Assembly (NCBI GenBank): GCA_043824495.1 | Contig: JBDRSV010000005.1 | Span: 1 to 64,000 of the forward strand | Direction: 5' to 3' | Source of the DNA: Candidatus Aenigmatarchaeota archaeon | GTDB lineage: Archaea > Aenigmatarchaeota > Aenigmatarchaeia > QMZP01 | DNA: 64,000 nucleotides | In this document: positions 1 through 52,256 of the stretch, in pieces | How the letters are laid out: each line of letters opens with the position of its first letter | Numbering within the stretch: position 1 is the first letter of the stretch | Made by a program: the position numbers and the translations under genes | The notes under the pieces: generated by a model | What the model was told of the DNA's origin: nothing | The model's database searches: none | What the model saw: only the letters and a program-made list of their open reading frames with translations

Positions 1-229
1 ATTTAAATTATTATTTTTCAATAGTTACATAGTCATGTTCCACACTTACCATCGCTGACAATCTTTAGACATCTGGGGCAAGTTACTTGTTCGAGGTAAA
101 GTCATCATCTGTAATTTAGGAATCAACACTCCACAACAACGAAAGACAAATGTATGTCTGTTGCGGTGTGTTTTGAGTTAATTCTAGGACGATAACTATA
201 AACGACGTAACGAACCAGAAGGAGGAATC

Positions 230-1228
230 GTGAGACTGCTCGTCACAAGAACTGGATTGGCAATCCTGTGTATCGGATTGTTAATGATCACCGCAGGATG
301 TGGTGAGAAAGAAGTGGATTACAGCTACAGTGCCTACTCTGTGAGCGGCAACTGGAACCGTGTTAAGGACTTCTACCAGAGAGAAGACGTCACATATCGC
401 TGCGACAAGCTCTTCGAGGCCGAAGAGGGGAACCCAGGAACACTTGACGCTCTTGGTGTAACAGTTGATGAACTTCTTACAATGCGTGACACGTTTCTAG
501 TCGCCGAGATCTGGAGACAGTTTGCAACTTCCGGCGACTCGTGTGACCATCGCGACGTCACATCAGAAGTCGAGAGAATACGTCATCTGGAGAAGCAACT
601 GAAAACCGAAGACTTCGCATCACTCGGCCTCACAGAGGATATGTTGGTGACATGCCAACTCACCGGCCAGATCTTCCCTACACGGGAGAGACTTCTCGTG
701 ATCCAGGCAAATGCCTACGATACTGACTACTCCAATGATATCGCAGGTATCATCAATCTCGCTGAACGGGCCCCATGGGGTCTGAATGATGTTCCGATCA
801 CACTTGACAGCCTCAAAGTTCTGGAAATCACGTGCAAACTGTCAAGTGGACGCAAGGCGGCGAAGAATGCAAGAGTCTACTCTAATACCGGTAATCTGGA
901 ACGTCTACAGGACCAGCTCAAATCGCTTGGCACATACGTAGACGACATTACTGAGAAGTATGCAGGATCTCATCCGGCGTGGGATGATGGCATCCAGGAA
1001 CTTCGAATCTTCTTGAGCGATCACTCGCGTACAAACCTCTTCGAGCGTGCACACCAATTCCAGGCCTACAAGTGGGCCAGATATATGAGGAGAATGACGC
1101 CTAGTCGCAATACGAACGCTAATCCAGTATATCACTTCAAAAATCACCAAGAGCAATCCGGACATACCTTGGGGTACTACGGAGTCACCCAAACGGAACT
1201 CGCGATGTGGACGCGTAAGTGGAGCTGA
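230..1228 (+). CDS. Hypothetical lipoprotein-like protein (E1 cargo)
   Basis: 332-aa ORF with SD AAGGAGG before GTG; basic N-terminus, hydrophobic stretch and lipobox-like TAGC; recurring (L/Y)G(V/L)TxxxL motif. Confidence 0.7.
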   Translation: MRLLVTRTGLAILCIGLLMITAGCGEKEVDYSYSAYSVSGNWNRVKDFYQREDVTYRCDKLFEAEEGNPGTLDALGVTVDELLTMRDTFLVAEIWRQFATSGDSCDHRDVTSEVERIRHLEKQLKTEDFASLGLTEDMLVTCQLTGQIFPTRERLLVIQANAYDTDYSNDIAGIINLAERAPWGLNDVPITLDSLKVLEITCKLSSGRKAAKNARVYSNTGNLERLQDQLKSLGTYVDDITEKYAGSHPAWDDGIQELRIFLSDHSRTNLFERAHQFQAYKWARYMRRMTPSRNTNANPVYHFKNHQEQSGHTLGYYGVTQTELAMWTRKWS

Positions 1229-1290: not shown

Positions 1291-1315
1291 TTTATATTGT
1301 CTAGTTAGAGGGATA
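1291..1315 (+). repeat. Right-end motif copy 1
   Basis: TTTATATTGTCTAGTTAGAGGGATA; near-identical copies at 9076-9100 (-), 22623-22647 and 49415-49439. Confidence 0.9.
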
Positions 1316-1422
1316 TATATGGTGGCCTTGCACCAAAACCAGTTACTTGAAAAATCTTGTTTATGTGAACAAAATATGTTCTAAAGCGTTTCACTTATCA
1401 ATATCAAGGATAAATACACTTT

Positions 1423-5407: not shown

Positions 5408-8400
5408 CTATACTTTTTGTATGAAACTTGGTCTAGGCTCGTATAACATACCCTCTCTCTTCAACTTATCTATAATTTCATCCACTTCTTCTATTCCTTC
5501 TTTCTTGGCCAATTCTTCAATTTCACCAATGGCTATTTCTTTTTTCTTCGTGGATAGTTCATTGATTATTTCAAGAATAGATCTTATCTTGGTTCTTTCA
5601 CTTGAAGAAACTCCACCTTCTGATCTATCTATATCTATTTGTCCTGTTTCTGGATCATAACCAAGTTGCTTCAAAGAATAAGTCATGAGTTTGATTGCTC
5701 TTTCTGCATCTTCTATTCTAACAACAGGACTAAGTTGAATCTTAGCAGAAGCTTCTGAAATTCTTATGAGAGCCTCGAATTGCCTCAAACTTAGAGGAAT
5801 TGCTCCACCGCCTTCTGTAGTTGCTCTCTTTCTAGAACTTACATAAAAGTTCTTGAGCATTTTACCTACTTCTGCGGTTAATTCAGGTTTACATTTATCC
5901 TTTGCGTATGCTATATATTTCCTTATATTGTCTCTGTCTATTGTAGGTGTATTGTCTGTTGCTTCTATGTCTCTTGATTTTAGTATGTGATCTACAACTT
6001 TCTTGTCCATTGTTGTGTCTGGTTTGTCCATTAAAGCGAACTTCAAATCAAACCTAGATAACAGTGTTGGTGAAATTGTAATCTGTTTGCTTATAGCCAT
6101 GTAAGGATCGAATCTTGAGAACTTAGGATTACCTCCTGCTAAAACGGATGTTTGTGCTGGTAATGTTGCAACTATAGAAGCTTTGGCGATTGATACTGAA
6201 TTGTGGCATATTATACCATTTCCTATAAAAATTCCAGTTGGATTCATTGCAACATCATAAACCCACTGTTTACCTCTCTTCAATGATATTGATTTTATCC
6301 TTATCCACTCCACAGGAGCTTCTAGAACAAACCTGAGATTTTCAATTATTCTTTTCTGAGAAAGCATCTTTTCTAGTATATTCTCAGTCACTGTTATAGA
6401 TTTTTTAAATAGTTTCTCGTCTTTCTTTACAGCTTTCCAATACCAAAGATTCTGCTCGCTTATTTTTAATTTCCTTGCAATTTCTGATCTACTTATTCTA
6501 AACTCCTCTCTCAATTTTCTGAATTCTGTGTAATGAATGGGGGACTTTAATTTTTCAAGTGTTTTCTCTATCTTAACTATCCTCGAATCAAAGCTTTTAA
6601 CAATTTTTCTAAGCATTTCTTTGGTAATATTGTTCTTCTTTCGTGTAAGAGTTAACTCATGGCCTACAATTTCATCATAAGAAAGATTCAGTTCTTTCCT
6701 TATTTGTTCCACTAAAGGCACAATATTAGGCACGTGGTTCCATACTGAGGAAACTGTTCTTTTCGTGACAAGTTTTTGAAGTTTATGTTTTCTTCTTCCT
6801 GTAAAGCCTATAAATTTATCAAAATTTTTTATGTTTTCTTTTCCAGAGAGTTGAAGCTTGTAAGCTACATGTTTTCTATTACCTTTCATGCTTTTATCTA
6901 AATATATACCAGAGAAAATTTCAAACCTGAGCAGTAGTTCTCTGATATGTTTTGCTAGATTTTCACTGGTAGTGGAAAATGTTATTGTTCCATAAGGATA
7001 ATTAACAGATCCTTCTGCATCAAAAAGTCCTCTAAGAAGATAAGATATTTCTTCATTTGATGATTTGTTAATCCAGTCAGGGAGGGATTTATTCCATGGT
7101 TCTACAAGAATCTGAGAACCAATAGAATGAATAAAACGATACAATGGTCTTGAAATTAACCTTATCATCTCTAATGAATCCTTCTCTCTTGTTTGAACGT
7201 ACGGGGAGATAGAAAATAATTTTTTAATTAAGTATTTATAGCGATTTAGAATGTCTTGATCATTGTTACTAAAACAGACCCCGTTTTTAATTTTTCTATT
7301 AACCTCAGCATTACCTTCTCCTATAATCAGACCAATCCATTCACATAATTCCTTGCTGCTTCTTGTGGGTAATTTTAGTTTTTTGTGTTTCTTATCTTCA
7401 GGAATTTTTTGTAGTGGAAGAGGCTGAGGTTTTCCATACAATGAAAGTCTTTTTGGAACTGGTATATGATCACCTTTTTTCAAGCCCCTTGCTTTTATAG
7501 GTGTTATGACACCGTTTCTTATTATAAAAACAGGATGATCTTTTGTTATTTTTATTTCTTGTCCTGTATTAAGATTAATTTTATAAATAGAATTCTCTGT
7601 GTGTTTGCCAACAGCTAGAATCTTTGAAGGTTTTATTTGTTTGAAGTCTGAAGATAGTATGTGTATGTTTTTGTCCGATATGATCTTGCTTATATTGTTT
7701 CCTTTCTCCCCCTGGGTTAATTGATCTACAAAATCTCCTATCTGTGTCTTGCTCCCGTCTTCAAAAATAAGTTCGGTGCTTCCGTCATAACATCCTTGTT
7801 CGAGTGCTTCGTGCATAGCTACTTGATCTTCTTGGCTCATCTTCTCGAACTCGTCTATTGCAAGCAACCCCTTGTTTGCTAAAACAATTGCACCAGCTTC
7901 TAAAACCCATCCACCCATGAACTGTTCATCTTTAGTAACTGTCGCCGTAAGTCCCGCAGTAGATGTCCCCTTACCTGATACATACTTACCTCTAGGAACA
8001 ATATCTGGAACTAGTTTAAGCAACTGAGATTTACCTGAAGCAGGATCACCAATAATTAGAAGATGTATATCACCTCTTATTCTTGTACGATCTCTTAGTT
8101 TTCTTGTAACTCCTCCAAAAAGCTGCATTATTATTGCCTCTTTTTCATATTCAAGACCGTACAAAGAAGGAGCTATTGATTGTACTAGTTTCTCATAAAT
8201 TTTAGGGTCTCTTGCAAAAGCTTTGATTTTTTCTTCGTCTTCCTTATTGATATCTAATTTTTCCCACCCTATTTCAGTTGCCTCGAAATTGTTTACATCT
8301 AAGAAAAAATCTAGTTTAACTCCTTGGGCATTTTGTTTTGGTATATCTTTCAAAATACCACAAAGCAGGAGCTTGTTACCAGGTTCTGTTAGTCTTCTAC

Positions 8401-9031
8401 CATCAGGAGATACTAAATCCTCTGTTACTACAACAGTTACTTGAGATGGTCTTTCACCTTCTGTTAATTCAAATGGTTCTTCAATAACCATCCATCTAGT
8501 ATCAATCATTTTCTTTCCAACTTCTTTGAAACCTATTCTATTTCTACATGGTTTTCCGCCTATGACACCTGTGCACAAGAAAGGCTTGGGCATGAAGTTG
8601 CCTCTCCTTTCTATTGTTAGCTTTTCTTCACATTCAGGGCACTCCCATTCAGTTTCCATTATTTCAGGTCTAATTTCAGATGCTTTTCTTACTATACCTT
8701 CAACTGCAAGGAATTTGTTAATATGTCTTGATCTAAGATCTCTGATGCTTGTGAGTTCTGTCAAGTTCTTTACTCTAACTCTAACTGGATTAGGTAAGTC
8801 TATCTGAGTAACAGCGTCTTCTGCTACTTGGAAGAATGTTTTAGGATCAAGCAGAAGCAGCTCAGAAAGTTCAGGACCATGCTTACCAAATTTCTGAATC
8901 CAATCAAAATCAACCTCTAGAGGAGTTCCTGAATTTGATGCTTCTTCAATATCTTTGCTATATCTGTCTCTCAGGAACTCATTGAATCGAAGCGTTAGCT
9001 CGTCCTTTTTCTCTTCAGAAATATAGGCCAT
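5408..9031 (-). CDS. mcm: MCM replicative helicase with intein
   Basis: Zn finger CPEC..C, Walker A GDPASGKSQ, Walker B IDEFEKM, arginine finger LLSRFD and C-terminal winged helix. Confidence 0.97.
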   Translation of the reverse strand: MAYISEEKKDELTLRFNEFLRDRYSKDIEEASNSGTPLEVDFDWIQKFGKHGPELSELLLLDPKTFFQVAEDAVTQIDLPNPVRVRVKNLTELTSIRDLRSRHINKFLAVEGIVRKASEIRPEIMETEWECPECEEKLTIERRGNFMPKPFLCTGVIGGKPCRNRIGFKEVGKKMIDTRWMVIEEPFELTEGERPSQVTVVVTEDLVSPDGRRLTEPGNKLLLCGILKDIPKQNAQGVKLDFFLDVNNFEATEIGWEKLDINKEDEEKIKAFARDPKIYEKLVQSIAPSLYGLEYEKEAIIMQLFGGVTRKLRDRTRIRGDIHLLIIGDPASGKSQLLKLVPDIVPRGKYVSGKGTSTAGLTATVTKDEQFMGGWVLEAGAIVLANKGLLAIDEFEKMSQEDQVAMHEALEQGCYDGSTELIFEDGSKTQIGDFVDQLTQGEKGNNISKIISDKNIHILSSDFKQIKPSKILAVGKHTENSIYKINLNTGQEIKITKDHPVFIIRNGVITPIKARGLKKGDHIPVPKRLSLYGKPQPLPLQKIPEDKKHKKLKLPTRSSKELCEWIGLIIGEGNAEVNRKIKNGVCFSNNDQDILNRYKYLIKKLFSISPYVQTREKDSLEMIRLISRPLYRFIHSIGSQILVEPWNKSLPDWINKSSNEEISYLLRGLFDAEGSVNYPYGTITFSTTSENLAKHIRELLLRFEIFSGIYLDKSMKGNRKHVAYKLQLSGKENIKNFDKFIGFTGRRKHKLQKLVTKRTVSSVWNHVPNIVPLVEQIRKELNLSYDEIVGHELTLTRKKNNITKEMLRKIVKSFDSRIVKIEKTLEKLKSPIHYTEFRKLREEFRISRSEIARKLKISEQNLWYWKAVKKDEKLFKKSITVTENILEKMLSQKRIIENLRFVLEAPVEWIRIKSISLKRGKQWVYDVAMNPTGIFIGNGIICHNSVSIAKASIVATLPAQTSVLAGGNPKFSRFDPYMAISKQITISPTLLSRFDLKFALMDKPDTTMDKKVVDHILKSRDIEATDNTPTIDRDNIRKYIAYAKDKCKPELTAEVGKMLKNFYVSSRKRATTEGGGAIPLSLRQFEALIRISEASAKIQLSPVVRIEDAERAIKLMTYSLKQLGYDPETGQIDIDRSEGGVSSSERTKIRSILEIINELSTKKKEIAIGEIEELAKKEGIEEVDEIIDKLKREGMLYEPRPSFIQKV
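6200..7792 (-). mobile_element. Intein (531 aa) with LAGLIDADG homing endonuclease, within mcm
   Basis: HEALEQG|CYDG...IICHN|SVSIAKA junctions (Cys1, terminal His-Asn, Ser+1); WIGLIIGEG and LLRGLFDAEG LAGLIDADG motifs; internal HTH-like segment ISRSEIARKLKIS. Confidence 0.93.
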
Positions 9032-9075: not shown

Positions 9076-9100
9076 TATCCCTTTAAATTGACAATATAAA
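9076..9100 (-). repeat. Right-end motif copy 2
   Basis: Reverse complement reads TTTATATTGTCAATTTAAAGGGATA; lies upstream of mcm. Confidence 0.9.
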
Positions 9101-14550: not shown

Positions 14551-14828
14551 TTTATATCTTCCTCGGATAGAGTTCTGTCGGTATACCTCAGACTATGTAA
14601 AACACCATACAGAAGTCATTTGATATGACTATTGTTCTGTGTGGTGTTGGTTCCTAGGTTACAATGCCAATATATCTGCAAGGAAATTTTCCTCAAAGAT
14701 GTCTAAAGTCAATTGGCGTGAAAGTGTGGAGCATGATATTTTGACTATTACTATTGGATAGTGAATATTTCATAGTAAACTTTATATTATTTAGCATTGA
14801 GAGTCGTAACAGTAAATATAGAAATTTA

Positions 14829-15793: not shown

Positions 15794-16027
15794 ATGGCAG
15801 ACGTAGATTTCAAAACTGTAAAAGCTGAAGAAATTAAATTCGGTAAGAACAACTTCCTTGAAGTTGCAAGGAAAAAGGCTGTTACCGAAGAGGGTGAGAC
15901 TGAATTCATTGCAATATCAAGAGGATTTTTCTCACCAGATGGATCCAAAAGATTCAAGAAGTCAATTGCACTTCCTGATGAAAAGGAAATCCGCGATTTC
16001 GTATCCAAAAAAATATTAGAACTGTAA
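15794..16027 (+). CDS. Small conserved archaeal protein, possibly a PC4-like nucleic-acid-binding fold
   Basis: SD GGAGGT before ATG at 15794; beta-rich pattern FLEVARK..FIAISRGFF..RFKKSIAL followed by a helix. The fold assignment is inference. Confidence 0.55.
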   Translation: MADVDFKTVKAEEIKFGKNNFLEVARKKAVTEEGETEFIAISRGFFSPDGSKRFKKSIALPDEKEIRDFVSKKILEL

Positions 16028-16166
16028 AAACAACAAAATTGGTTAATACAAGAGATGATGAAGAACACGCTGCGAAGCTGACTTAGTCTCTGTTTTTCTT
16101 ATTATTTTTCCTGTATCACATGTAGCTATTTATTGCAGTGTTCATAAGAATTAACATAGTGATTTT

Positions 16167-17816
16167 ATGAAGGATCTGATAATGAAATATGTATTGCAGA
16201 ATGCAATTTTTTATGAAGGTAAAGCTAATCCAAATGCTATTCTGGGTAAAATTCTAGGATCAGAACCTGCTCTACGAAAGAATCCAGATAAAGTGAGAAA
16301 AGAAATCGAAGAAGTTGCTAAAAAAGTAAATAGTATGGATTTAGCTAAACAAAAAGAAGAATTGAAAAAAATCGATCCCGAAATGCTTGTTAAAGAGGAG
16401 AAAGAGCAAGAAGAGCTGCCACCTCTGAAAGGAGCTGTGGAAGGTAAAGTTGTAACAAGATTTGCTCCTTCACCTACTGGTCCTTTGATGATTTATCATT
16501 TACTAAGAGCAGTTTATTTGAATTATTTGTATGCACAGAAGTATAACGGAAAATTTATTGTTAGAATTGAAGATACAGACCCTGGTAATATCAAAAGAGA
16601 ATTCTATGAGTGGATAAAAGAAGATTTGAAAAACTCTGGTGTTAAATGGGACGAATTGTTTCACCAATCCGATCACATGGATTTGTACTACAAAAATGCA
16701 GAGAAATTGATACAAAAGAATGATGTATATGCTTGCTTCTGTAATCCTGACCAATTCAAGAAACTCAAGAATAAAAAAATGAATTGTCCTTGTAGAGATG
16801 AAGGTAAAACAAAATTCCATTGGGATAAAGCTGTTAGAGGTGATTATGCAGAAGGAGAAATGATTTTTAGATTGAAAACTTCTATGCAAGATCCTAACCC
16901 AGCTATAAGAGATCCTGCATTATTCAGAATAAATAAAAAACATCATCCCTTTAAAACAATAAAATACAAACTATGGCCTCTGTACAATTTTGCTAATACA
17001 ATTGATGATCACGAGATGGGTGTTACTCATGTATTCAGAGGAAAAGAACATGAACATAACACGACAATACAGAAGATGATTTATGAGAAACTAGGCTGGA
17101 AAATGCCTTTTGTGATTAATTTTGGTATGATATATCTTCCAGGAGTCAAGTTGCATACTAGAGATATCAAGCAAATGATTGCAGAAGAAAAGTTCACCGG
17201 ATGGGATGATGTGAGATTACCAACAATCAGATCCATTATTAGACGAGGATTTCAACCAGAAGCTATTAGAGAGCTAGCGATTTCAAGCGGTTTAACAAAA
17301 ACAGATATAAACGTGAGCTGGGAGAAGTTCGAAACTCTTAATAGAAAAATAATAGATAAAAAAGCTAACAGATACATGGTTGTAAAATCTCCGGTTAGAT
17401 TAGTAATCAAAGATGCTCCTTCTATGAATCAGGTGAGAGAAAAGATACACCCAGAATCTGAGAAGACTAGGATCATTCCAGTTAATCTGAAAGAGATATA
17501 CATAGAGAAAGAAGATTACATAAGACTAAAGGATAGAGATTTCAGATTGAAAGGTTTGGGTAATATCAGAGTCACAGGTAAAACTGGACGGTATTTAGGT
17601 AACGAGATCTACAAAGACATGCATAAGATACAGTGGGTATCTAAACCTCATGCAGAGGTTATTATTCTAAAGGGTGACGATGTCATTCATGGTATTGGTG
17701 AACCTGGGTTAAAGAAACTACACCCAGGTCAAATAATCCAGATGGAGAGAATTGGTTTTGGTAAGGTAGATGCAAGAACAGATAATGAGATTGTCATCAT
17801 CTTTGCTCATAGGTAA
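16167..17816 (+). CDS. gltX: Glutamyl-tRNA synthetase (archaeal type, probably non-discriminating)
   Basis: VVTRFAPSPTGPL, RIEDTDP, DDHEMGVTHVFRGKEH, GWDDVRLPT and Q(M)ERIGF; gatD and gatE are present in the window. Confidence 0.95.
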   Translation: MKDLIMKYVLQNAIFYEGKANPNAILGKILGSEPALRKNPDKVRKEIEEVAKKVNSMDLAKQKEELKKIDPEMLVKEEKEQEELPPLKGAVEGKVVTRFAPSPTGPLMIYHLLRAVYLNYLYAQKYNGKFIVRIEDTDPGNIKREFYEWIKEDLKNSGVKWDELFHQSDHMDLYYKNAEKLIQKNDVYACFCNPDQFKKLKNKKMNCPCRDEGKTKFHWDKAVRGDYAEGEMIFRLKTSMQDPNPAIRDPALFRINKKHHPFKTIKYKLWPLYNFANTIDDHEMGVTHVFRGKEHEHNTTIQKMIYEKLGWKMPFVINFGMIYLPGVKLHTRDIKQMIAEEKFTGWDDVRLPTIRSIIRRGFQPEAIRELAISSGLTKTDINVSWEKFETLNRKIIDKKANRYMVVKSPVRLVIKDAPSMNQVREKIHPESEKTRIIPVNLKEIYIEKEDYIRLKDRDFRLKGLGNIRVTGKTGRYLGNEIYKDMHKIQWVSKPHAEVIILKGDDVIHGIGEPGLKKLHPGQIIQMERIGFGKVDARTDNEIVIIFAHR

Positions 17817-21109: not shown

Positions 21110-21476
21110 GATTAATAATTGGCTTGGCTCCTAATAAAAATCGGAGTTTTCTGGTGTTTTTGGGCATATCTTTAAAAATCTGTCAAGGAAAAGCTGATCA
21201 ACAGCATAAAGGTGACTATCATATTCCACTCTCAAAAAATCTACAATTTGTATCAGATAAACAAAGCGTTTAATCTGAAAATGTCTTCATGGACCCATAA
21301 ATCAACGCACACAAAACACGAAATAACACAAAGTGCATTGTTAGCTTAAGCTATGGAGAATGAGAAGCCTGAGAGTGATTTTTTCTGTCTTCTGTAAAGA
21401 AATTACCAGACTTTTGTCTTAGACGAGAGTCTTTCGCCAATAGAAAAAAATGATTCATTGATATGGGGGGTGAACA

Positions 21477-22307
21477 ATGATATCGTGTAAATCAAAACAG
21501 GTGGATTCAACACGGCTTGACGCTAGGCCGAAAAAGCGACGAATGCCAGTTCAGGTCTCGCGTGCCTGGGATGCGTATTTCAGCTCCGGCGACCCTGGTG
21601 TTCGTCAGAACCTTCTCAATCATTACCTGCCGCTCGTATGCAATGTGGCGGGTAGGATGGCTCTAGGCTTTCCCAAAGCTGTTGAGCTGAATGATTTGAT
21701 TTCCACAGGCACGATCGGCTTGTGCCAGTCCTTAAAGAACTTCGATCCTAAACGAGGCGTCAAGTTCGAAACCTTTGCGGTTCCCCGAATCCGTGGTGCA
21801 ATTCTCGACGAGATGCGCAGCTTGGATTGGGTGCCGCGTTCCACACGCTCGAAAGCACGTAAGATTGATCGAGTCACAACTCAGATCGAACAACAACAGG
21901 GACGTGTGTCAATGCATAATGAACTCGCTGTCCTTCTGAAGATCCCGCTGGACGATCTGCTAGTGGTGCTGACAGATATTTCGGCATCAAGGCTTATGTC
22001 CTTGGATGAATTGGTATATCGAGAGGAGGACAATAGGCAGGTTCCGAGAGTCGAGACACTCGAACTTCCTGTGAGAAGAGATGCCTTGAGAGAGGTCGAA
22101 CGCAGAGAGCTAAAGGTATTCCTCATTAACGCCATTTCTACTCTCAACGAGCAAGAGACACATGTCATTGGCTTATACTACTACGATGAGCTTACCATTC
22201 GTGAGATTGGCGAACTCATGAATCTCTCGGAATCCCGAATCTCGCAGGTTCACACTAGGTCTGTGGAAAAGTTGCGAAGAATGGTGCGCGATAGATTCGG
22301 ATACTGA
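21477..22307 (+). CDS. fliA: Bacterial RNA polymerase sigma-28 factor, FliA/WhiG family
   Basis: NDLISTGTIGL..FDPKRGVKFETFAVPRIRGAILDEMRSLDWVPRS (region 2) and LYYYDELTIREIGELMNLSESRISQVH (region 4). Confidence 0.95.
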   Translation: MISCKSKQVDSTRLDARPKKRRMPVQVSRAWDAYFSSGDPGVRQNLLNHYLPLVCNVAGRMALGFPKAVELNDLISTGTIGLCQSLKNFDPKRGVKFETFAVPRIRGAILDEMRSLDWVPRSTRSKARKIDRVTTQIEQQQGRVSMHNELAVLLKIPLDDLLVVLTDISASRLMSLDELVYREEDNRQVPRVETLELPVRRDALREVERRELKVFLINAISTLNEQETHVIGLYYYDELTIREIGELMNLSESRISQVHTRSVEKLRRMVRDRFGY

Positions 22308-22622: not shown

Positions 22623-22647
22623 TTTATATTGTCTAATTAGAGGGATA
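22623..22647 (+). repeat. Right-end motif copy 3
   Basis: TTTATATTGTCTAATTAGAGGGATA, ending 3 bp before the ATG at 22651. Confidence 0.9.
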
Positions 22648-22650
22648 TGA

Positions 22651-23403
22651 ATGAAAGAAATAAAAAACTTACTATCTAAGTATAAAAGATCTGATATGGC
22701 AACTGAAGGATATAAAAGAGTGGTTTTGGGTGCAGGAACTATTGAACCTCATCATCTTCTTGTTGTTTATTCTCTTTTCGAACCCGGCAGTGAAGTACAA
22801 GCAGTTGATCATAAAGGACGACTTTTAGTAAAGAGAGGCAAAAGATCTCATTATAAACTACTTACAACCGATTCTGGTCTCCTGGTTGCGACAAGTGAAG
22901 ATATACCACTACCAAATGAAGAGCCTTTAGCTTCGAGTTATACAGATGCACATGTAGGAAGTACAACACCTGATGCTATTGATAGGATCATGAGTGATTG
23001 GTTAAAATATTTAGCAGAAACATTTGGAAATCAATATCAAACAGCTCTTATAGCTGATAATCTTAGTATGTTTTCTTTAGGACGTTCTGTATACAAACCT
23101 GATGGAGATAATTCTATCGTTGTTAATACTTCTCAATATAGCAATAAGAAACCAGTCAGTACATTGAGATTGCATTCAGTTGATGGTATTCAAGATGATA
23201 TATTTGATACAGGCGGATGCAAAAATCCTCTTGATGTTATGAATAAACTATTTGAAGAGGAGCAATCCACCTTCGCTGCTGTTGCTGCTTTTGATGGATC
23301 TGTGGAACCTGGAGCAGAAATGAATAGAGGAGAACCGCGACATAGAATAATACCTCCTGGTAGCGGAGAATGGCAGTTACATATAAGAAATAGACACAAG
23401 TAA
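22651..23403 (+). CDS. Hypothetical protein
   Basis: 250-aa ORF with host-like composition; only a weak resemblance (LLVATSE) to Ntn-hydrolase folds. Confidence 0.65.
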   Translation: MKEIKNLLSKYKRSDMATEGYKRVVLGAGTIEPHHLLVVYSLFEPGSEVQAVDHKGRLLVKRGKRSHYKLLTTDSGLLVATSEDIPLPNEEPLASSYTDAHVGSTTPDAIDRIMSDWLKYLAETFGNQYQTALIADNLSMFSLGRSVYKPDGDNSIVVNTSQYSNKKPVSTLRLHSVDGIQDDIFDTGGCKNPLDVMNKLFEEEQSTFAAVAAFDGSVEPGAEMNRGEPRHRIIPPGSGEWQLHIRNRHK

Positions 23404-38665: not shown

Positions 38666-40735
38666 ATGAAAATCGCTTTAATTACCCTCGTTTTGACTAT
38701 GATCTTAGTTTTAGGTTTATCTCAAACAGTTCTAGCACAAGTCAATGTAGGAGATTTACCTGCTAAAGGCAATTCTGATGCTCCTATTACAATAGTAGAG
38801 TTCTCAGATTTTCAATGTTCATTCTGTGCAAGATTTACATCACAAACTCTTCTAGAAATACAAACTAAATATATAGACACCGGTAAAGTCAAATTCTATT
38901 TCAGAGACTTTCCTTTAAGTTTCCATCAGCAAGCAAAGCCAGCTGCTTTAGCAGCAAGATGTGCAGATGATCAAGGTAAGTTCTGGGAATTTCATGACTT
39001 AATTTTCGAAAATCAACAAGACCTAAGTGAAGCAACATACAAACAATGGGCATCTGATCTCGAATTAAATACTGTAGAGTTCAATTCATGTTTCGATTCA
39101 AATAAATACAGCGCTGAAATTGACGCTGATTTTTCAGCAGGTCAAGCAGTGGGTGTAAGCGGTACACCATCATTCTTTATTAACGGGCACAAAGTTGTAG
39201 GAGCTCAACCATTTGCAGCATTTGAAAATGTAATAGAACAACTTTTAGATGGAACTTTAGAACCAGTTGATCCTACTGATATACCAGAACCTACTATTCC
39301 AGAAACGCAACCAGTACCACCATTACCTGAAATTGTTGATGTTGATGTTGGAAGCTTACCAGTAAAAGGTGCTTCAAATGCTCCAGTAACAATTATAGAA
39401 TTCTCTGATTTCGAATGTCCATTCTGTGGAAGATTCACATCACAAACTCTTTCAATGATTGAATCTGAATATGTAGACACAGGAAAGGTAAAATTCTACT
39501 ACAGAGATTTCCCATTGAGTTTTCATCAACAAGCAATGCCGGCAGCTATTGCTGCAAGATGTGCAAATGAGCAAGGAGAGTTCTGGGCATTTCATGATTT
39601 AAATTACGAAAACCAACAGAATCTTGGTGAATCAGTATACAAACAATGGGCATCTAATCTTGGTTTAAACATAGCTCAATTCAATTCATGCTTTGATTCA
39701 GAAAAATATGAAACAGCTGTTCAAGCAGACTTTGCAGCAGGTCAGGCAGCAGGTGTAAGTGGAACGCCATCATTCTTTATTGGAAACAGTCAGGACGGAT
39801 ACCAAAAATTGGTTGGAGCTCAATCATTTGCAGCATTCAAAACAGTTATAGATCAGCAACTTGGTGTAGAACCAGATCCTTATCCTGATACACCGGGAAC
39901 AGAAGATATGCAACCAGAACCAGTTAAAGGAAATCCAAACGCTCCAGTAACAATCGTAGAATTCTCTGATTTCGAATGTCCATTCTGTGCAAGATTCTTT
40001 ACAAGTACTCATGGACAAATTGTTTCAGAATATGTAGATGCTGGTCATGCAAAAATAACATTTAGTAATTTCCCTCTAAGTTTCCATCAGAATGCACAGT
40101 CAGCTGCAGAGGCTTCTGAGTGTGCTCATGAACAAGGTAAATTCTGGGAATTCCATGATCTTGTATTTGAAAATCAAAATTCTCTAGATGTAACACAATA
40201 TAAACAGTGGGCATCACAACTAGGGTTGAATACAGCAAGATTTAATTCTTGTGTAGATACACACAAATATGCACCTGAAGTGAGACATGATTTTGCTCAA
40301 GGACAAGCAAAAGGAGTTCGTGGAACACCATCATTCTTCATCAATGGTGAGAACCTTGTAGGTGCTCAACCATTCTCAGCATTCAAAGCTGTGATAGATA
40401 AATACTTGGATACAGATGAACCAGAAACACAGCCAGATGATATAGACACAGAGATCTTAGACATTGTATTCAAGCTTGAGAGCTTGGGAATCAAAGTAGA
40501 TAAGTTAGCAACACTATCAGGATCACTAGCTTCATATTACTCAAACACAGGTGATTTCGCAAGAGCAACTCACTGGCAAGAAGTCGCAAACATGTTCGAT
40601 AATGTAATGGATTTCATGGATGAGATAAAGAGCGAATTAAACAGAACAAGAGATCTATTTGATGCAAGAAACAGCATCTCTGAATTAACAAGCTTCATAG
40701 GAAGTATAATTAACAAGATATTAGGATTTGTATGA
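38666..40735 (+). CDS. Secreted protein with three tandem DsbA/thioredoxin-like domains
   Basis: Signal peptide; three EFSDF(Q/E)C(S/P)FC sites, each followed by GTPSFF cis-Pro motifs; helical C-terminal domain. Confidence 0.92.
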   Translation: MKIALITLVLTMILVLGLSQTVLAQVNVGDLPAKGNSDAPITIVEFSDFQCSFCARFTSQTLLEIQTKYIDTGKVKFYFRDFPLSFHQQAKPAALAARCADDQGKFWEFHDLIFENQQDLSEATYKQWASDLELNTVEFNSCFDSNKYSAEIDADFSAGQAVGVSGTPSFFINGHKVVGAQPFAAFENVIEQLLDGTLEPVDPTDIPEPTIPETQPVPPLPEIVDVDVGSLPVKGASNAPVTIIEFSDFECPFCGRFTSQTLSMIESEYVDTGKVKFYYRDFPLSFHQQAMPAAIAARCANEQGEFWAFHDLNYENQQNLGESVYKQWASNLGLNIAQFNSCFDSEKYETAVQADFAAGQAAGVSGTPSFFIGNSQDGYQKLVGAQSFAAFKTVIDQQLGVEPDPYPDTPGTEDMQPEPVKGNPNAPVTIVEFSDFECPFCARFFTSTHGQIVSEYVDAGHAKITFSNFPLSFHQNAQSAAEASECAHEQGKFWEFHDLVFENQNSLDVTQYKQWASQLGLNTARFNSCVDTHKYAPEVRHDFAQGQAKGVRGTPSFFINGENLVGAQPFSAFKAVIDKYLDTDEPETQPDDIDTEILDIVFKLESLGIKVDKLATLSGSLASYYSNTGDFARATHWQEVANMFDNVMDFMDEIKSELNRTRDLFDARNSISELTSFIGSIINKILGFV

Positions 40736-47203: not shown

Positions 47204-47441
47204 TAAATTCTACAAACATAGTGCATGACTACGAAAACCTAGATTGAAATGCCTATTTAAATTTTACCTTTAAGTTCTATTCATCATGCTCCACAATTCA
47301 CGCCATTTAAGTCTTTTGACTGATTATTACCAAAATATCTGGTAATAGTTTGGCTTTTGTATTTTAGGTAAAACAACGGAAGACTACTAAAGTCTTCACA
47401 TCATAGAGAAACGCTTAGTTTTGAGAATATGGGGGTGTGAA

Positions 47442-49414: not shown

Positions 49415-49439
49415 TTTATATTGTCTACTTAAAGGGATA
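49415..49439 (+). repeat. Right-end motif copy 4
   Basis: TTTATATTGTCTACTTAAAGGGATA, 50 bp upstream of tRNA-Ser. Confidence 0.9.
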
Positions 49440-49489
49440 AAATAGAATGAAAAATAACTTAAATACGGCAGTGTATATTCTTCTTATAT

Positions 49490-49571
49490 GCCGGGATGGC
49501 AGAATGGTTAATGCGCACGACTGGAAATCGTGTGCCCTTTGGGCTTGGGGGTTCGAATCCCTCTCCCGGCG
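49490..49571 (+). tRNA. tRNA-Ser (anticodon GGA)
   Basis: GCCGGGA/TCCCGGC acceptor stem, CACGA-CTGGAAA-TCGTG anticodon arm, long variable arm GCCC-TTT-GGGC, T-arm and G73. Confidence 0.95.
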
Positions 49572-49713
49572 TTTCTTTATTTAATAAGGTCACAGAAATA
49601 AACAAAAGATCTAAATAATGTATTTTAATGTGCCCTTACAGAAAATGTATGCATGGGCACCAAATTAAACAAAAATAGATAATTTTATATATTATTGTGC
49701 CCATATATAAAAT

Positions 49714-50652
49714 ATGGTTTATTTAGAGAAGATTCAGAGAAGAGACAAAACTTATTACTACGTCACAAAAAACTTTAGGATCAACGATAAGAAATGGAAA
49801 AAAATAAGAAAATATGTAGGTAACACTCCTCCTTCAAAAGAAGACACAAAAAAAGCAATAAAGGAGATTGAGAGAGAAGCAATAGAAAGAAACCTGAAGA
49901 AGTCCTCTTCTAAGTATAATTACCTGAGCAATGAAGAAGCGGAAAAGTTGCAGGACTTGAAAGAGATTTTTAACAAATGGTACGGAAAGCTGACTGGTAT
50001 TGCGAAAAAAAAATATGAAGAGGATTTTGTTGTAAGATTCACATATAATTCGAATGCTATTGAAGGCAATCGTTTAAGTCTTCGTGAAACAAGTATGATT
50101 TTAACAGAAAATATAATACCTTCGGGTGCTATACCTAATGATTACAATGAAACTATCAACTCAAAAGACTGCTATGAATTCATGAAAGAGTATAAAGGAG
50201 AATTCAATCAGAAATTTCTACTCAAGATCCAGGAGCTTCTCACAAAGAATACTAATTGTAGGATTACAGGAAGATACAGGGATCATGAAGTTAGGATTTC
50301 TGGTTCTGAATGGATTCCTCCTCCACATAAAAAAGTCAAAGAGGAAATGAGAAAGGTTTTTCAATGGTACTATTCTGCTAGTAAGAAGTTACATCCTGTG
50401 GAGCTCGGAGCAATTCTGCATAATAAATTAATAAGAATTCATCCATTCTCTGACGGAAACGGGAGAACATCAAGGGTTGTAATGAATTGGATATTAATGA
50501 GGAGTGATTTCCCTATGGTTTACATAGAATTAAAAGATAAGGCGGCGTATTATGATGCTATTGAACAGGGAGACAAAGGAAAAGATGATGCAATAGTACA
50601 TTACATTACCTCTACTCTTATGAAACAGCACACGTTTAAACCGGAAAATTAG
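49714..50652 (+). CDS. Fic family protein
   Basis: Canonical Fic motif HPFSDGNGRTSR; TYNSNAIEGN. Confidence 0.93.
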   Translation: MVYLEKIQRRDKTYYYVTKNFRINDKKWKKIRKYVGNTPPSKEDTKKAIKEIEREAIERNLKKSSSKYNYLSNEEAEKLQDLKEIFNKWYGKLTGIAKKKYEEDFVVRFTYNSNAIEGNRLSLRETSMILTENIIPSGAIPNDYNETINSKDCYEFMKEYKGEFNQKFLLKIQELLTKNTNCRITGRYRDHEVRISGSEWIPPPHKKVKEEMRKVFQWYYSASKKLHPVELGAILHNKLIRIHPFSDGNGRTSRVVMNWILMRSDFPMVYIELKDKAAYYDAIEQGDKGKDDAIVHYITSTLMKQHTFKPEN

Positions 50653-50763: not shown

Positions 50764-52128
50764 CTAAACTCTCCGATACAGGTTAATAGTAAATGAATCT
50801 CCAAAATGAAGTTTTGAATTGAAAGTCTTGTTAAGGTAGTATTTTCCTGGAAGTATATCCTCTATGTCTCTTGAGAGATCAGGAGTAAAGAACCCATCTA
50901 AAACAATGATATCAAAGAATCTATTATCAACCGCTTCTTTAAAATCATTAAATGTCGATAGAGTGTCCCCATCATAATCTAAGTAGAATGTTGCATGAGT
51001 TTGCTTATTTGGTTCTCTCATAAAATAATATATATATGAATTTGATTCTCCAAGAATAATATTAGCATCGGGCATGCTTCTTATATAATCCACTGGTTCA
51101 GATATATTTGGATACGAACGGTCTAAATAATACACAAAAAATCCAGATGATATTACAAAGGCAATCAAAACAATACCCCCAATTTTTACTCGTAGTCTTA
51201 CAATTCCAGCAGCCATGAGAGGAGAGAGAAAAATAAATGGATATGCCATGTGCTTAAACATTGTATACTCAAAATTGAAAGTGAATACATGAAAAATAAA
51301 CATTAAGAGAGATCCGAATAACAAATATTTCCATTCCTTGATCCTATTCTTTGCCAATAATGCCAAAGAGAAGGGAATGACAAAGTAGAAAAGAATACTA
51401 ATAAATCTCGTAATATCGATTTGAGCTAATGAATTTAGATGCTTATCAGAGAAAAATGATAATAATGATATCAAAGAAGAAAAGAACAATATAGCATAAA
51501 TAGAAAGAAATAATAAAAATACAATCAAGAAGTATAGGCCCTTCTTTTTATTTTTAGAATAAATGAATGGGAATAAGACTACTGTATATATTATTGCAAT
51601 ATATTTTGATATTACTGAGAAGAAAAATGATATCGGTGATAGATAAAATCCTTTATTTTTTGATCCAGCAATTGCAAAGTAAAAACCAGCAGATAGGAAA
51701 AAGATGGAGAATATTTCAAACGATACCATTCTACTGACAAATATGAATGGCGCATTTAAAACAAATATGGAAAGAGATACAAGAGCTAGCTTTCTATCTA
51801 ATAGTTCTCTAGATGTAAGATAGACAAAAAATGAAGTCCCAGTAGCTAAAATTACACTGAGCAAGCGTGCTGCAAAAAGTCCTCCGATTAAATCCATTAT
51901 TCCATAAATTAATGGGAAAAGAGTACTACCAAATATATATCTTGGAGGATCGCCACCAAAATCATAAATATCCCGTAACTCATTCCCTATGATAAGATAC
52001 TGTGACTCATCAGTGAAAATAGTATTGAAATTCAGATTAGCAGCCTCGAAAAGGAAGAACAGAACAAGTATGATAACAAGGATGTATTTGGCATCAGTTC
52101 TTTGTATCCATTCAGGCACCGAATTCAT
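50764..52128 (-). CDS. GT-C (ArnT/PMT-like) membrane glycosyltransferase
   Basis: FTDESQY first-loop acidic motif, about 11 TM segments and an external C-terminal domain. Confidence 0.75.
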   Translation of the reverse strand: MNSVPEWIQRTDAKYILVIILVLFFLFEAANLNFNTIFTDESQYLIIGNELRDIYDFGGDPPRYIFGSTLFPLIYGIMDLIGGLFAARLLSVILATGTSFFVYLTSRELLDRKLALVSLSIFVLNAPFIFVSRMVSFEIFSIFFLSAGFYFAIAGSKNKGFYLSPISFFFSVISKYIAIIYTVVLFPFIYSKNKKKGLYFLIVFLLFLSIYAILFFSSLISLLSFFSDKHLNSLAQIDITRFISILFYFVIPFSLALLAKNRIKEWKYLLFGSLLMFIFHVFTFNFEYTMFKHMAYPFIFLSPLMAAGIVRLRVKIGGIVLIAFVISSGFFVYYLDRSYPNISEPVDYIRSMPDANIILGESNSYIYYFMREPNKQTHATFYLDYDGDTLSTFNDFKEAVDNRFFDIIVLDGFFTPDLSRDIEDILPGKYYLNKTFNSKLHFGDSFTINLYRRV

Positions 52129-52256
52129 AAAACATTATTTCTTTAGAATCATAAATATCTAATGTTCCATTTGGGCTTGGGGGTTCAAATCCCTCCTCCG
52201 GCGTCTTTTCTATATCAGACCTAGTTATATAAAATTTACTATGTTTAATCTTTTAC

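Follow-up and report, generated by a model that had tools for sequence, protein, structure and literature searches.

A three-helix RNA module, probably a new cis-acting leader, at the promoter end of bacterial-type gene cassettes in one family of tiny archaea

Although DPANN archaea rely on other cells and have very small genomes, the DPANN genome described here contains ~18 blocks of genes recently imported from bacteria. Hardly any regulatory RNAs are, to our knowledge, known in this lineage, and we know of no leader family described in DPANN archaea that would be comparable to the element at the left end of these blocks. Elsewhere, cis-acting leaders that bind a factor include riboswitches, ribosomal-protein leaders and processive-antitermination RNAs (e.g., put and EAR). 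With those leaders the present element shares a position between promoter and first gene, covarying helices that frame invariant unpaired nucleotides, and a terminal hairpin followed by U residues, but it differs from them in that the downstream genes have no common function and that it sits in a mobile cassette instead of a fixed operon.

Archaeal integrons, including attC sites in Aenigmatarchaeota, have been described by Ghaly et al. 2022 (PMC9668308), and resemble the present cassettes in bringing foreign, often bacterial, genes into archaeal chromosomes, in the possibility of tandem cassettes, and in having a folded element at one cassette end whose structure is kept more than its sequence. 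However, attC lies 3′ of a promoterless ORF, contains RYYYAAC/GTTRRRY cores and acts as bottom-strand DNA together with IntI, whereas the module reported here lies 5′, behind its own promoter, lacks such cores, favours pairing on the sense strand, and belongs to cassettes whose 3′ end is an IS6 terminal repeat. The PeSLs of T4-type phages (PMC2839356, PMC4122927) are likewise repeated, portable combinations of a promoter and a stem-loop that border, and travel with, variable accessory genes. Those are bacterial promoter/terminator composites of ~50–100 bp that are kept in sequence and thought to provide homology for recombination, whereas the present unit combines an archaeal promoter with a 140-nt three-helix leader showing compensatory changes, and has an IS6-derived box at the other end. 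These integrons and PeSLs were the nearest described systems, and no earlier description of the leader itself was found in the literature.

The cassettes and their layout

The window analysed here covers the initial 64 kb of a contig of 153 kb from an assembly labelled G000 (29 contigs, among them C5, C11, C23 and C24; 1.01 Mb, 80% complete, GC ~35%). Its archaeal host genes include MCM (with an intein and an archaeal winged helix), IMPDH, GluRS and NFACT. The MCM intein (gene at 5408–9031 of the window) contains a LAGLIDADG endonuclease domain, and the orthologue in G001, a genome of the same genus, is apparently intein-free (query positions 6190–7794 found no match). Elsewhere in the window (38745–40401), three tandem paralogous units of ~600 nt with 67–82% identity probably represent a triplicated thioredoxin/DsbA-like gene.

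The assembly contains 17–18 islands of elevated GC content (46–51%), each opening with a TATA-like box plus a motif termed box A, and closing with a motif termed box R. Their cargo is of bacterial type and has no common functional theme, comprising a sigma-70-family protein, FHA proteins, thiolase, enoyl-CoA hydratase, an EamA transporter, acyl-CoA and 3-hydroxyacyl-CoA dehydrogenases, M20 and M32 peptidases, and a protein bearing a type IX secretion tail; no recombinase was found among the 30 larger cargo proteins scanned. The cargo has the form of a single transcript, i.e., a Shine-Dalgarno leader, genes and an own terminator hairpin, the U run of which merges into R. The first ORF starts at +158 to +457 from box A, and nearly all first ORFs are preceded by a GGAGG-like site.

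Box A occurs three times in exact form (TCATGYTCCACA) in the window, at 33–44 (+), 14725–14736 (–) and 47284–47295 (+), each time at the low-GC edge of a GC-rich island. On rereading, the motifs named box B and box C in the initial annotation were indeed present at the offsets it had given for cassettes E1, E2 and E4 (+30, +28 and +29 for box B; +77, +73 and +74 for box C), its hairpins at 144–159 (AGACA/TGTCT), 14601–14648 and 47379–47397 could be read as claimed, and ATTTAAAT was confirmed ~30 nt upstream of box A in both E1 (1–8) and E4 (47255–47262). Its description of E3 as more degenerate was borne out by a box A with two mismatches (TCATATTCCACT, at 21219) and a divergent leader, in which the covariance model described below found no canonical set of the helices P1, P2 and P3. 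The features of the four cassettes are as follows:

1..8 (+), E1 TATA-like box ATTTAAAT, ~30 nt upstream of box A, with the left flank cut by the contig start
33..44 (+), E1 box A TCATGTTCCACA, at or just past the predicted transcription start, and the sole left-end feature common to all cassettes
54..106 (+), E1 P1–P2 domain (RNAalifold on a MAFFT alignment, single-sequence folds and pair counts)
54–59 with 101–106 (+), E1 P1, GCTGAC with GTCATC
63–70 (+), E1 box B CTTTAGAC, in an internal loop
71–82 with 86–97 (+), E1 P2
110..124 (+), E1 box C TGTAATTTAGGAATC, unpaired linker from P1 to P3
125..172 (+), E1 P3, the hairpin of the initial annotation, with AACAC/GTGTT around CAACA/TGTTG around GACA/TGTC, then TTTTGAG
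221–225 (+), E1 Shine-Dalgarno GGAGG, before the single cargo ORF
230–1228 (+), E1 cargo ORF, the only one (332 aa, without Pfam match)
1292..1315 (+), E1 R, with a hairpin before it
14595..14736 (–), E2 left module, with box A 14725–14736, P1 14712–14717 with 14666–14671, box B 14701–14708, P2 14674–14700 and P3 14601–14648
between 9076..9099 and 14595..14736 (–), E2 cargo, FHA-domain and membrane proteins
9076..9099 (–), E2 R
21219..21476 (+), E3 divergent leader, with box A-like TCATATTCCACT
21477–22307 (+), E3 cargo, sigma-70-family gene
22624–22647 (+), E3 R
47255..47416 (+), E4 TATA box and left module, with TATA 47255–47262, box A 47284–47295, P1 47302–47305 with 47351–47354, P2 ~47322–47349, box C 47355–47368 and P3 47379–47397
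49416..49439 (+), E4 R, 50 nt before a tRNA-Ser gene

The tRNA-Ser gene adjoining cassette E4 (49489–49572) has its 3′ part (49531–49577) repeated 2.6 kb downstream at 52163–52209 with 85% identity, and the two repeats enclose two ORFs (49714–50652 on the + strand and 50764–52128 on the – strand), so that the pair looks like a small element integrated into a tRNA gene.

Taken alone, the box A 12-mer did not occur beyond chance (17 matches with two mismatches allowed vs. 11.6 expected). The colinear module was far beyond chance, with nhmmer E-values of 1e-30 to 1e-50 for five copies, and E-values of 1e-14 to 1e-30 for eight G000 copies with a covariance model built from those eight. In G000, this first model returned only its eight input copies. 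A second model added a few more copies to those of the other genomes described below. The TATA-like box of the other copies was mostly 28–33 nt, and in some 21–46 nt, upstream of box A.

Fold and covariation of the left module

RNAalifold on a plain MAFFT alignment of the eight copies yielded a long-range helix (P1) with compensatory changes in five of its six pairs, joining the stretch just 5′ of box B to the stretch just 5′ of box C. Folds of the single copies revealed a common plan, in which P1 (5–7 bp) closes a domain holding box B and a second helix, P2 (10–12 bp); box B is unpaired within this domain or, in some copies, forms a small third hairpin (GACUUUNGUC), and is absent from the G001 copies. 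Box C (YUAGGAAYC) is an invariant unpaired linker between the P1 domain and the hairpin P3, which consists of an outer stem AACACC(AUG)/(CAU)GGUGUU and an inner stem AAGACA/UGUCUU, and is followed by 2–6 U and a short conserved YAGU. P1 around P2 was the lowest-energy fold in 14 of 17 copies, with z mostly between –2 and –5.4.

Pair counts were in line with this fold. Across 17 copies, standard pairs filled 77% of the cells (vs. 36–43% when the 3′ partners were slid by 1–3 columns), 22 of the 33 pairs had changed on both sides and the covariation score was 0.30 (slid 0.05–0.09), while across 24 copies from ~10 genomes the corresponding values were 80% (slid 35–42%), 32 of 33 and 0.41 (slid at most 0.10); both alignments were fitted to the model and lean towards structure, with independent support coming from the unfitted P1 and the single-sequence folds. 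None of 500 shuffles scored as high as observed for either set. P1 variants included GCUGAC/GUCAGC, GCCAAU/AUUGGC, CCAGC/GCUGG, UGACA/UGUCA and ACAGCC/GGCUGU. Most of the compensatory change resided in P1 and P2, i.e., in helices that the initial annotation had not described, whereas the stem-loop that it had presented as covarying (P3; AACACC/GGTGTT and AAGACA/TGTCTT) was largely conserved in sequence with few compensatory changes. It is in P1 and P2 that covariation is strong.

Since the compensatory changes extend across genera, they indicate selection on the pairing itself. Moreover, G-U outnumbered A-C pairs by 62 to 33, which suggests that it is the sense strand that folds, although G-T wobble in top-strand DNA is also possible. 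As judged from sequence, the location behind an archaeal promoter, the sense-strand bias and the selection on pairing across genera support the left end being a structured RNA. The covariance model and Rfam search that the initial annotation had suggested were both carried through, and cmscan against Rfam 15 (E ≤ 1) gave no match on the module for 18 loci from six genomes. Phage and plasmid records gave no match to the module either.

Two further pairings, and a peptide, were tried and rejected. Pairing of box A with the Shine-Dalgarno of the first gene averaged –8.0 vs. –6.8 kcal/mol for shuffled box A (p = 0.03), a weak difference that is mostly due to composition, and a pseudoknot between box A and box C (UUCC/GGAA) is contradicted by G001 copies that lack UCC yet keep GGAA. 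A leader-peptide attenuator, or a peptide started at the ATG of box A, does not fit the change of this ATG to ATA or ATT in five of 17 G000 copies, nor the ORFs opened by box A, which range from four to more than 24 codons and share no sequence past box A.

Distribution and boundaries

Copies were also found in other genomes of the same family, i.e., four in G001 and others in G008, G016, G021 and G064. Each of these has a TATA box upstream, and R lies 0.4–1.4 kb downstream where the locus extends that far. In G008, all three R boxes have a same-strand module 0.4–0.9 kb upstream, which makes the weak model matches credible. One of the G008 loci (L073:1823–1921; G008:C27) is a minimal 0.4-kb cassette consisting of the left module, a 53-aa membrane ORF and a tRNA-Met(CAT), with the 3′ end of the tRNA directly abutting the R box and replacing the usual terminator hairpin.

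In G000, the canonical fold is present in eight of the 18 cassettes, and the other ten keep the TATA box and box A with other, longer leaders that have short words such as GCTGAC, GACTTT and GTCTTT in common. The left module proved too variable for exact patterns of at least 14 bases, so that public collections were scanned for R before the model was applied. Among 52 metagenomic contigs with an exact R core, only one or two had a weak match to the module, and box A also occurs at left ends in distant lineages (metagenomic contigs L113 and L144). The general left feature of the cassettes is therefore the TATA box with box A, and the folded module is one lineage-restricted type of leader and not an obligatory end; cassettes lacking it are evidently functional. 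A box A-like site at C5:85154, without fold and without R, was set aside as probably due to chance.

These observations bear on the proposal of the initial annotation that the hairpin is single-stranded DNA recognised by a mobilising enzyme, i.e., a recombination or transposition signal resembling attC or an IS200/IS605 end. As at attC, structure is kept while sequence changes at the end of a mobile-looking cassette, and archaeal integrons with attC have been reported in Aenigmatarchaeota (PMC9668308). Tyrosine recombinase domains occur at 6–7 G000 sites, one of them beside cassette I11 and none in the window, and the assembly contains one Y1 (IS200-type) TnpA transposase (C23:4162–4518, within an element at C23:4087–4554 on the – strand). 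However, the RYYYAAC/GTTRRRY cores are absent, the P1 strands (e.g., GCTGAC/GTCAGC, GCCAAT/ATTGGC and CCAGC/GCTGG) having no AAC/GTT in common; the module lies 5′ of the first ORF, ~30 nt behind the TATA box, instead of after an ORF, and begins at least 20 nt inside the unit; the surplus of G-U pairs points to the sense strand; and the hairpins of the Y1 element (CACCGTTT-N4-AAACGGTG and CCACCGAC-N4-GTCGGTGG) are unlike P1, P2, P3 and the hairpins before R. Together with the lack of a recombinase among the scanned cargo proteins, and with the absence of the module from ten of the 18 cassettes here and from almost every metagenomic cassette that ends in the same R, this makes a DNA signal unlikely, and we accord it little probability. 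In full, the hairpins flanking the Y1 element read CACCGTTTtcaaAACGGTGG upstream and CCACCGACttcaGTCGGTGG downstream.

The boundaries of the homologous region were apparent from the close paralogues E1, I11 and I13, which are 72–94% identical from box A to ~+128, 56–69% identical in the 32 nt upstream of box A (AT-rich and containing the TATA box), and 22% identical farther upstream. Paralogue homology thus spans from ~–30 to ~+150 and is lost beyond both ends. A single comparison of an occupied with an empty site was available, in which a cassette separates a small gene from gltX in G001 but is missing in G000. By this comparison the insert extends at most ~20 nt past R on the right, and on the left it begins ~39 nt before a box A-like TCATGATC, so that the promoter probably travels with the unit. 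The site corresponds to window positions 16027–16167 vs. L146:1625–2790 (G001:C42), the small gene is a conserved one, and the 1-kb cassette carries an HAD-phosphatase-like ORF with R at 1754–1777 (–). Three tandem junctions (I8 to I9, an R-like box before I13, and metagenomic contig L144) all displayed the same spacing, i.e., R, ~12 nt, TATA, ~30 nt and box A. Target-site duplications were considered and rejected; the E2 flanks showed a weak promoter-like similarity, but nothing comparable was seen at E3 and E4.

At the site after a T2SS-F-like gene, G000 and G001 carry different cassettes, which would be expected if the left end were a portable stretch of homology for cassette swapping by homologous recombination, as in the promoter-plus-hairpin units that flank variable genes in T4-type phages (PMC2839356, PMC4122927), with the RNA fold being incidental. 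Nevertheless, copies within one genome are only 50–90% identical and would make a poor substrate for homologous recombination, and the compensatory changes across genera argue that pairing itself is selected, so that we regard this explanation as rather improbable. Capture at the RNA level would be another route, in which a reverse transcriptase would switch templates between the leader RNA and a bacterial transcript, and the resulting joint copy would enter the genome at an R box, downstream of a host promoter. If true, it would explain why the cassettes resemble one bacterial transcript with an archaeal 5′ end; the cargo is indeed transcript-shaped, the homology between copies starts near the predicted transcription start, and a reverse transcriptase is encoded in G000. 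On the other hand, the occupied and empty site suggests that ~39 nt upstream of box A arrived with the insert, and there is no poly-A or target-site signature, leaving this route conjectural and, in our estimation, very improbable.

Position and putative function of the leader

Position and strand suggest that transcription of each cassette would begin at its left end, with an archaeal TATA box ~30 bp upstream. Box A would be at or beside the transcription start (as predicted from the TATA spacing), and the next ~140 nt would form a folded 5′ leader, followed 30–60 nt after P3 by the Shine-Dalgarno and genes of the cargo itself. Of the readings offered by the initial annotation, that of a structured leader is the one supported, the element being on the sense strand, with an archaeal TATA box before it and the first Shine-Dalgarno-led gene after it, and having three helices with compensatory changes. 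Its other RNA reading, a guide-like ncRNA, found no support, since the unpaired boxes are conserved instead of variable, show no complementarity to R or targets, and come without an IS110-type enzyme (no match to the DEDD recombinase domain PF01548 in the 80% complete G000 assembly). In IS110 bridge RNAs and IS1111 seekRNAs, moreover, the loops vary with target and donor, whereas here the unpaired boxes are conserved and the helices vary, and the cargo consists of metabolic and surface proteins.

We therefore favour, with moderate confidence, a portable cis-acting 5′ leader RNA that controls imported bacterial genes, which would probably make the module a new cis-acting RNA in one family of tiny archaea. 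It would supply bacterial operons with an archaeal promoter and a common 5′ end, and most probably serves as a binding platform in cis, on which the covarying helices position the conserved unpaired boxes for one trans-acting factor, either a protein or, possibly, a small ligand. RNAs that bind something usually show this combination of covarying helices and invariant unpaired boxes. The factor would control read-through into the imported genes, the stability of their transcripts or their translation, and would thereby bring unrelated cassettes under one control. The architecture is compatible with that of a riboswitch, but the cargo is heterogeneous (sigma factor, FHA, beta-oxidation enzymes, peptidases, hisI and tRNA) and offers no shared theme pointing to a ligand.

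The 3′ end of the module could also be taken to mean that it is a stand-alone sRNA gene, driven by the TATA box, ending at P3 and its U run and acting in trans, with the cargo merely downstream or reached by read-through. Archaeal polymerases stop at oligo-U, and P3 is a stable terminal hairpin that is followed by 4–6 U in eight of ~15 copies; the size of ~140 nt and the own promoter would suit an sRNA gene, and the conserved unpaired boxes might act as seeds or bind proteins. However, all copies are followed on the same strand by Shine-Dalgarno-led ORFs without a second TATA box in between, none stands alone, many have only 2–3 U after P3, and an sRNA acting in trans would not normally be expected as eight diverged paralogues within a genome of 1 Mb. 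We thus grant this reading a small chance. For the cis-acting leader, too, a function of P3 and its U run as an attenuator is not established, as the run reaches at least 4 U in only about half of the copies.

If correct, a promoter and folded leader placed on unrelated bacterial operons would constitute a concrete cross-domain expression adaptor, offering a handle for study, and would predict that many foreign cassettes are switched jointly by one trans-acting factor. The module also adds an uncatalogued structured RNA family supported by covariation.

Box R and its relation to IS6 elements

The box that ends each island (R, TTRTATTGTCWANTTAAAGGGATATA) is preceded by a hairpin and was found in 17 copies in G000 vs. 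none in a reversed control. R proved to be the terminal inverted repeat of a complete IS in a metagenomic contig (L105:3826–4834), which is flanked by an 8-bp target duplication (CCGCAAAC) and encodes a transposase with an IS6-type DDE domain (DDE_Tnp_IS240). In seven other contigs the same R is followed by one identical interior, marking a multicopy IS, and the only one of these that was checked (L095) has an IS6-type DDE domain. The right-end box of the cassettes is thus shared with IS6/IS26-type elements as the terminal repeat of an IS6-family member. The left module, by contrast, shows no detectable resemblance to the IS; it contains no R-like box, nor does one lie upstream of it, and the covariance model gave no match to the left module in the IS-bearing contigs. 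This connection came from the metagenomic contigs and not from the transposase genes of the family genomes, as no R-like box was found within six mismatches and ~1.5 kb of the IS6 transposase genes of four family genomes.

G000 itself has no IS6-type DDE domain. It does encode a 134-aa protein without DDE domain, the sequence of which matches the Zn-ribbon/HTH N-terminus of the IS6-family transposase in L105 at 47% identity. The gene (C24:108290–108694 on the + strand, i.e., L060:2491–2895) is situated between the R box of cassette I14 and an R-like box (ATATATTGTCAATTAAGAGGTATA), the latter lying 45 nt upstream of box A of cassette I13, and it is divergent from the I13 left module.

Possible traces of R in the left end were examined and rejected. 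An R matrix applied to the 45 nt upstream of box A scored no better than on 503 host promoters (p = 0.30), so that the promoter does not appear to be a worn R. On the module itself, R scored no better than on shuffles. An R-like character of box C and complementarity of box B to R were no better than in shuffles and inconsistent in position, and the variants of box B and R do not co-vary within cassettes.

Downstream of R, a second motif (GGCYTTGCACMAWAAC) directly follows in several cassettes (window 1319–1345, C11:7172–7200, C24:127362–127390 and metagenomic contig L096), and in E1 it follows an ATG set 4 nt after R. An ATG is found 4–5 nt past the end of R in four of 17 copies (window 1319 and 22651, C24:106293 on the – strand, and C24:169581), the one at 22651 opening a 250-aa host ORF. 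These ATGs fit a leaderless downstream transcript driven by the TATA-like start of R.
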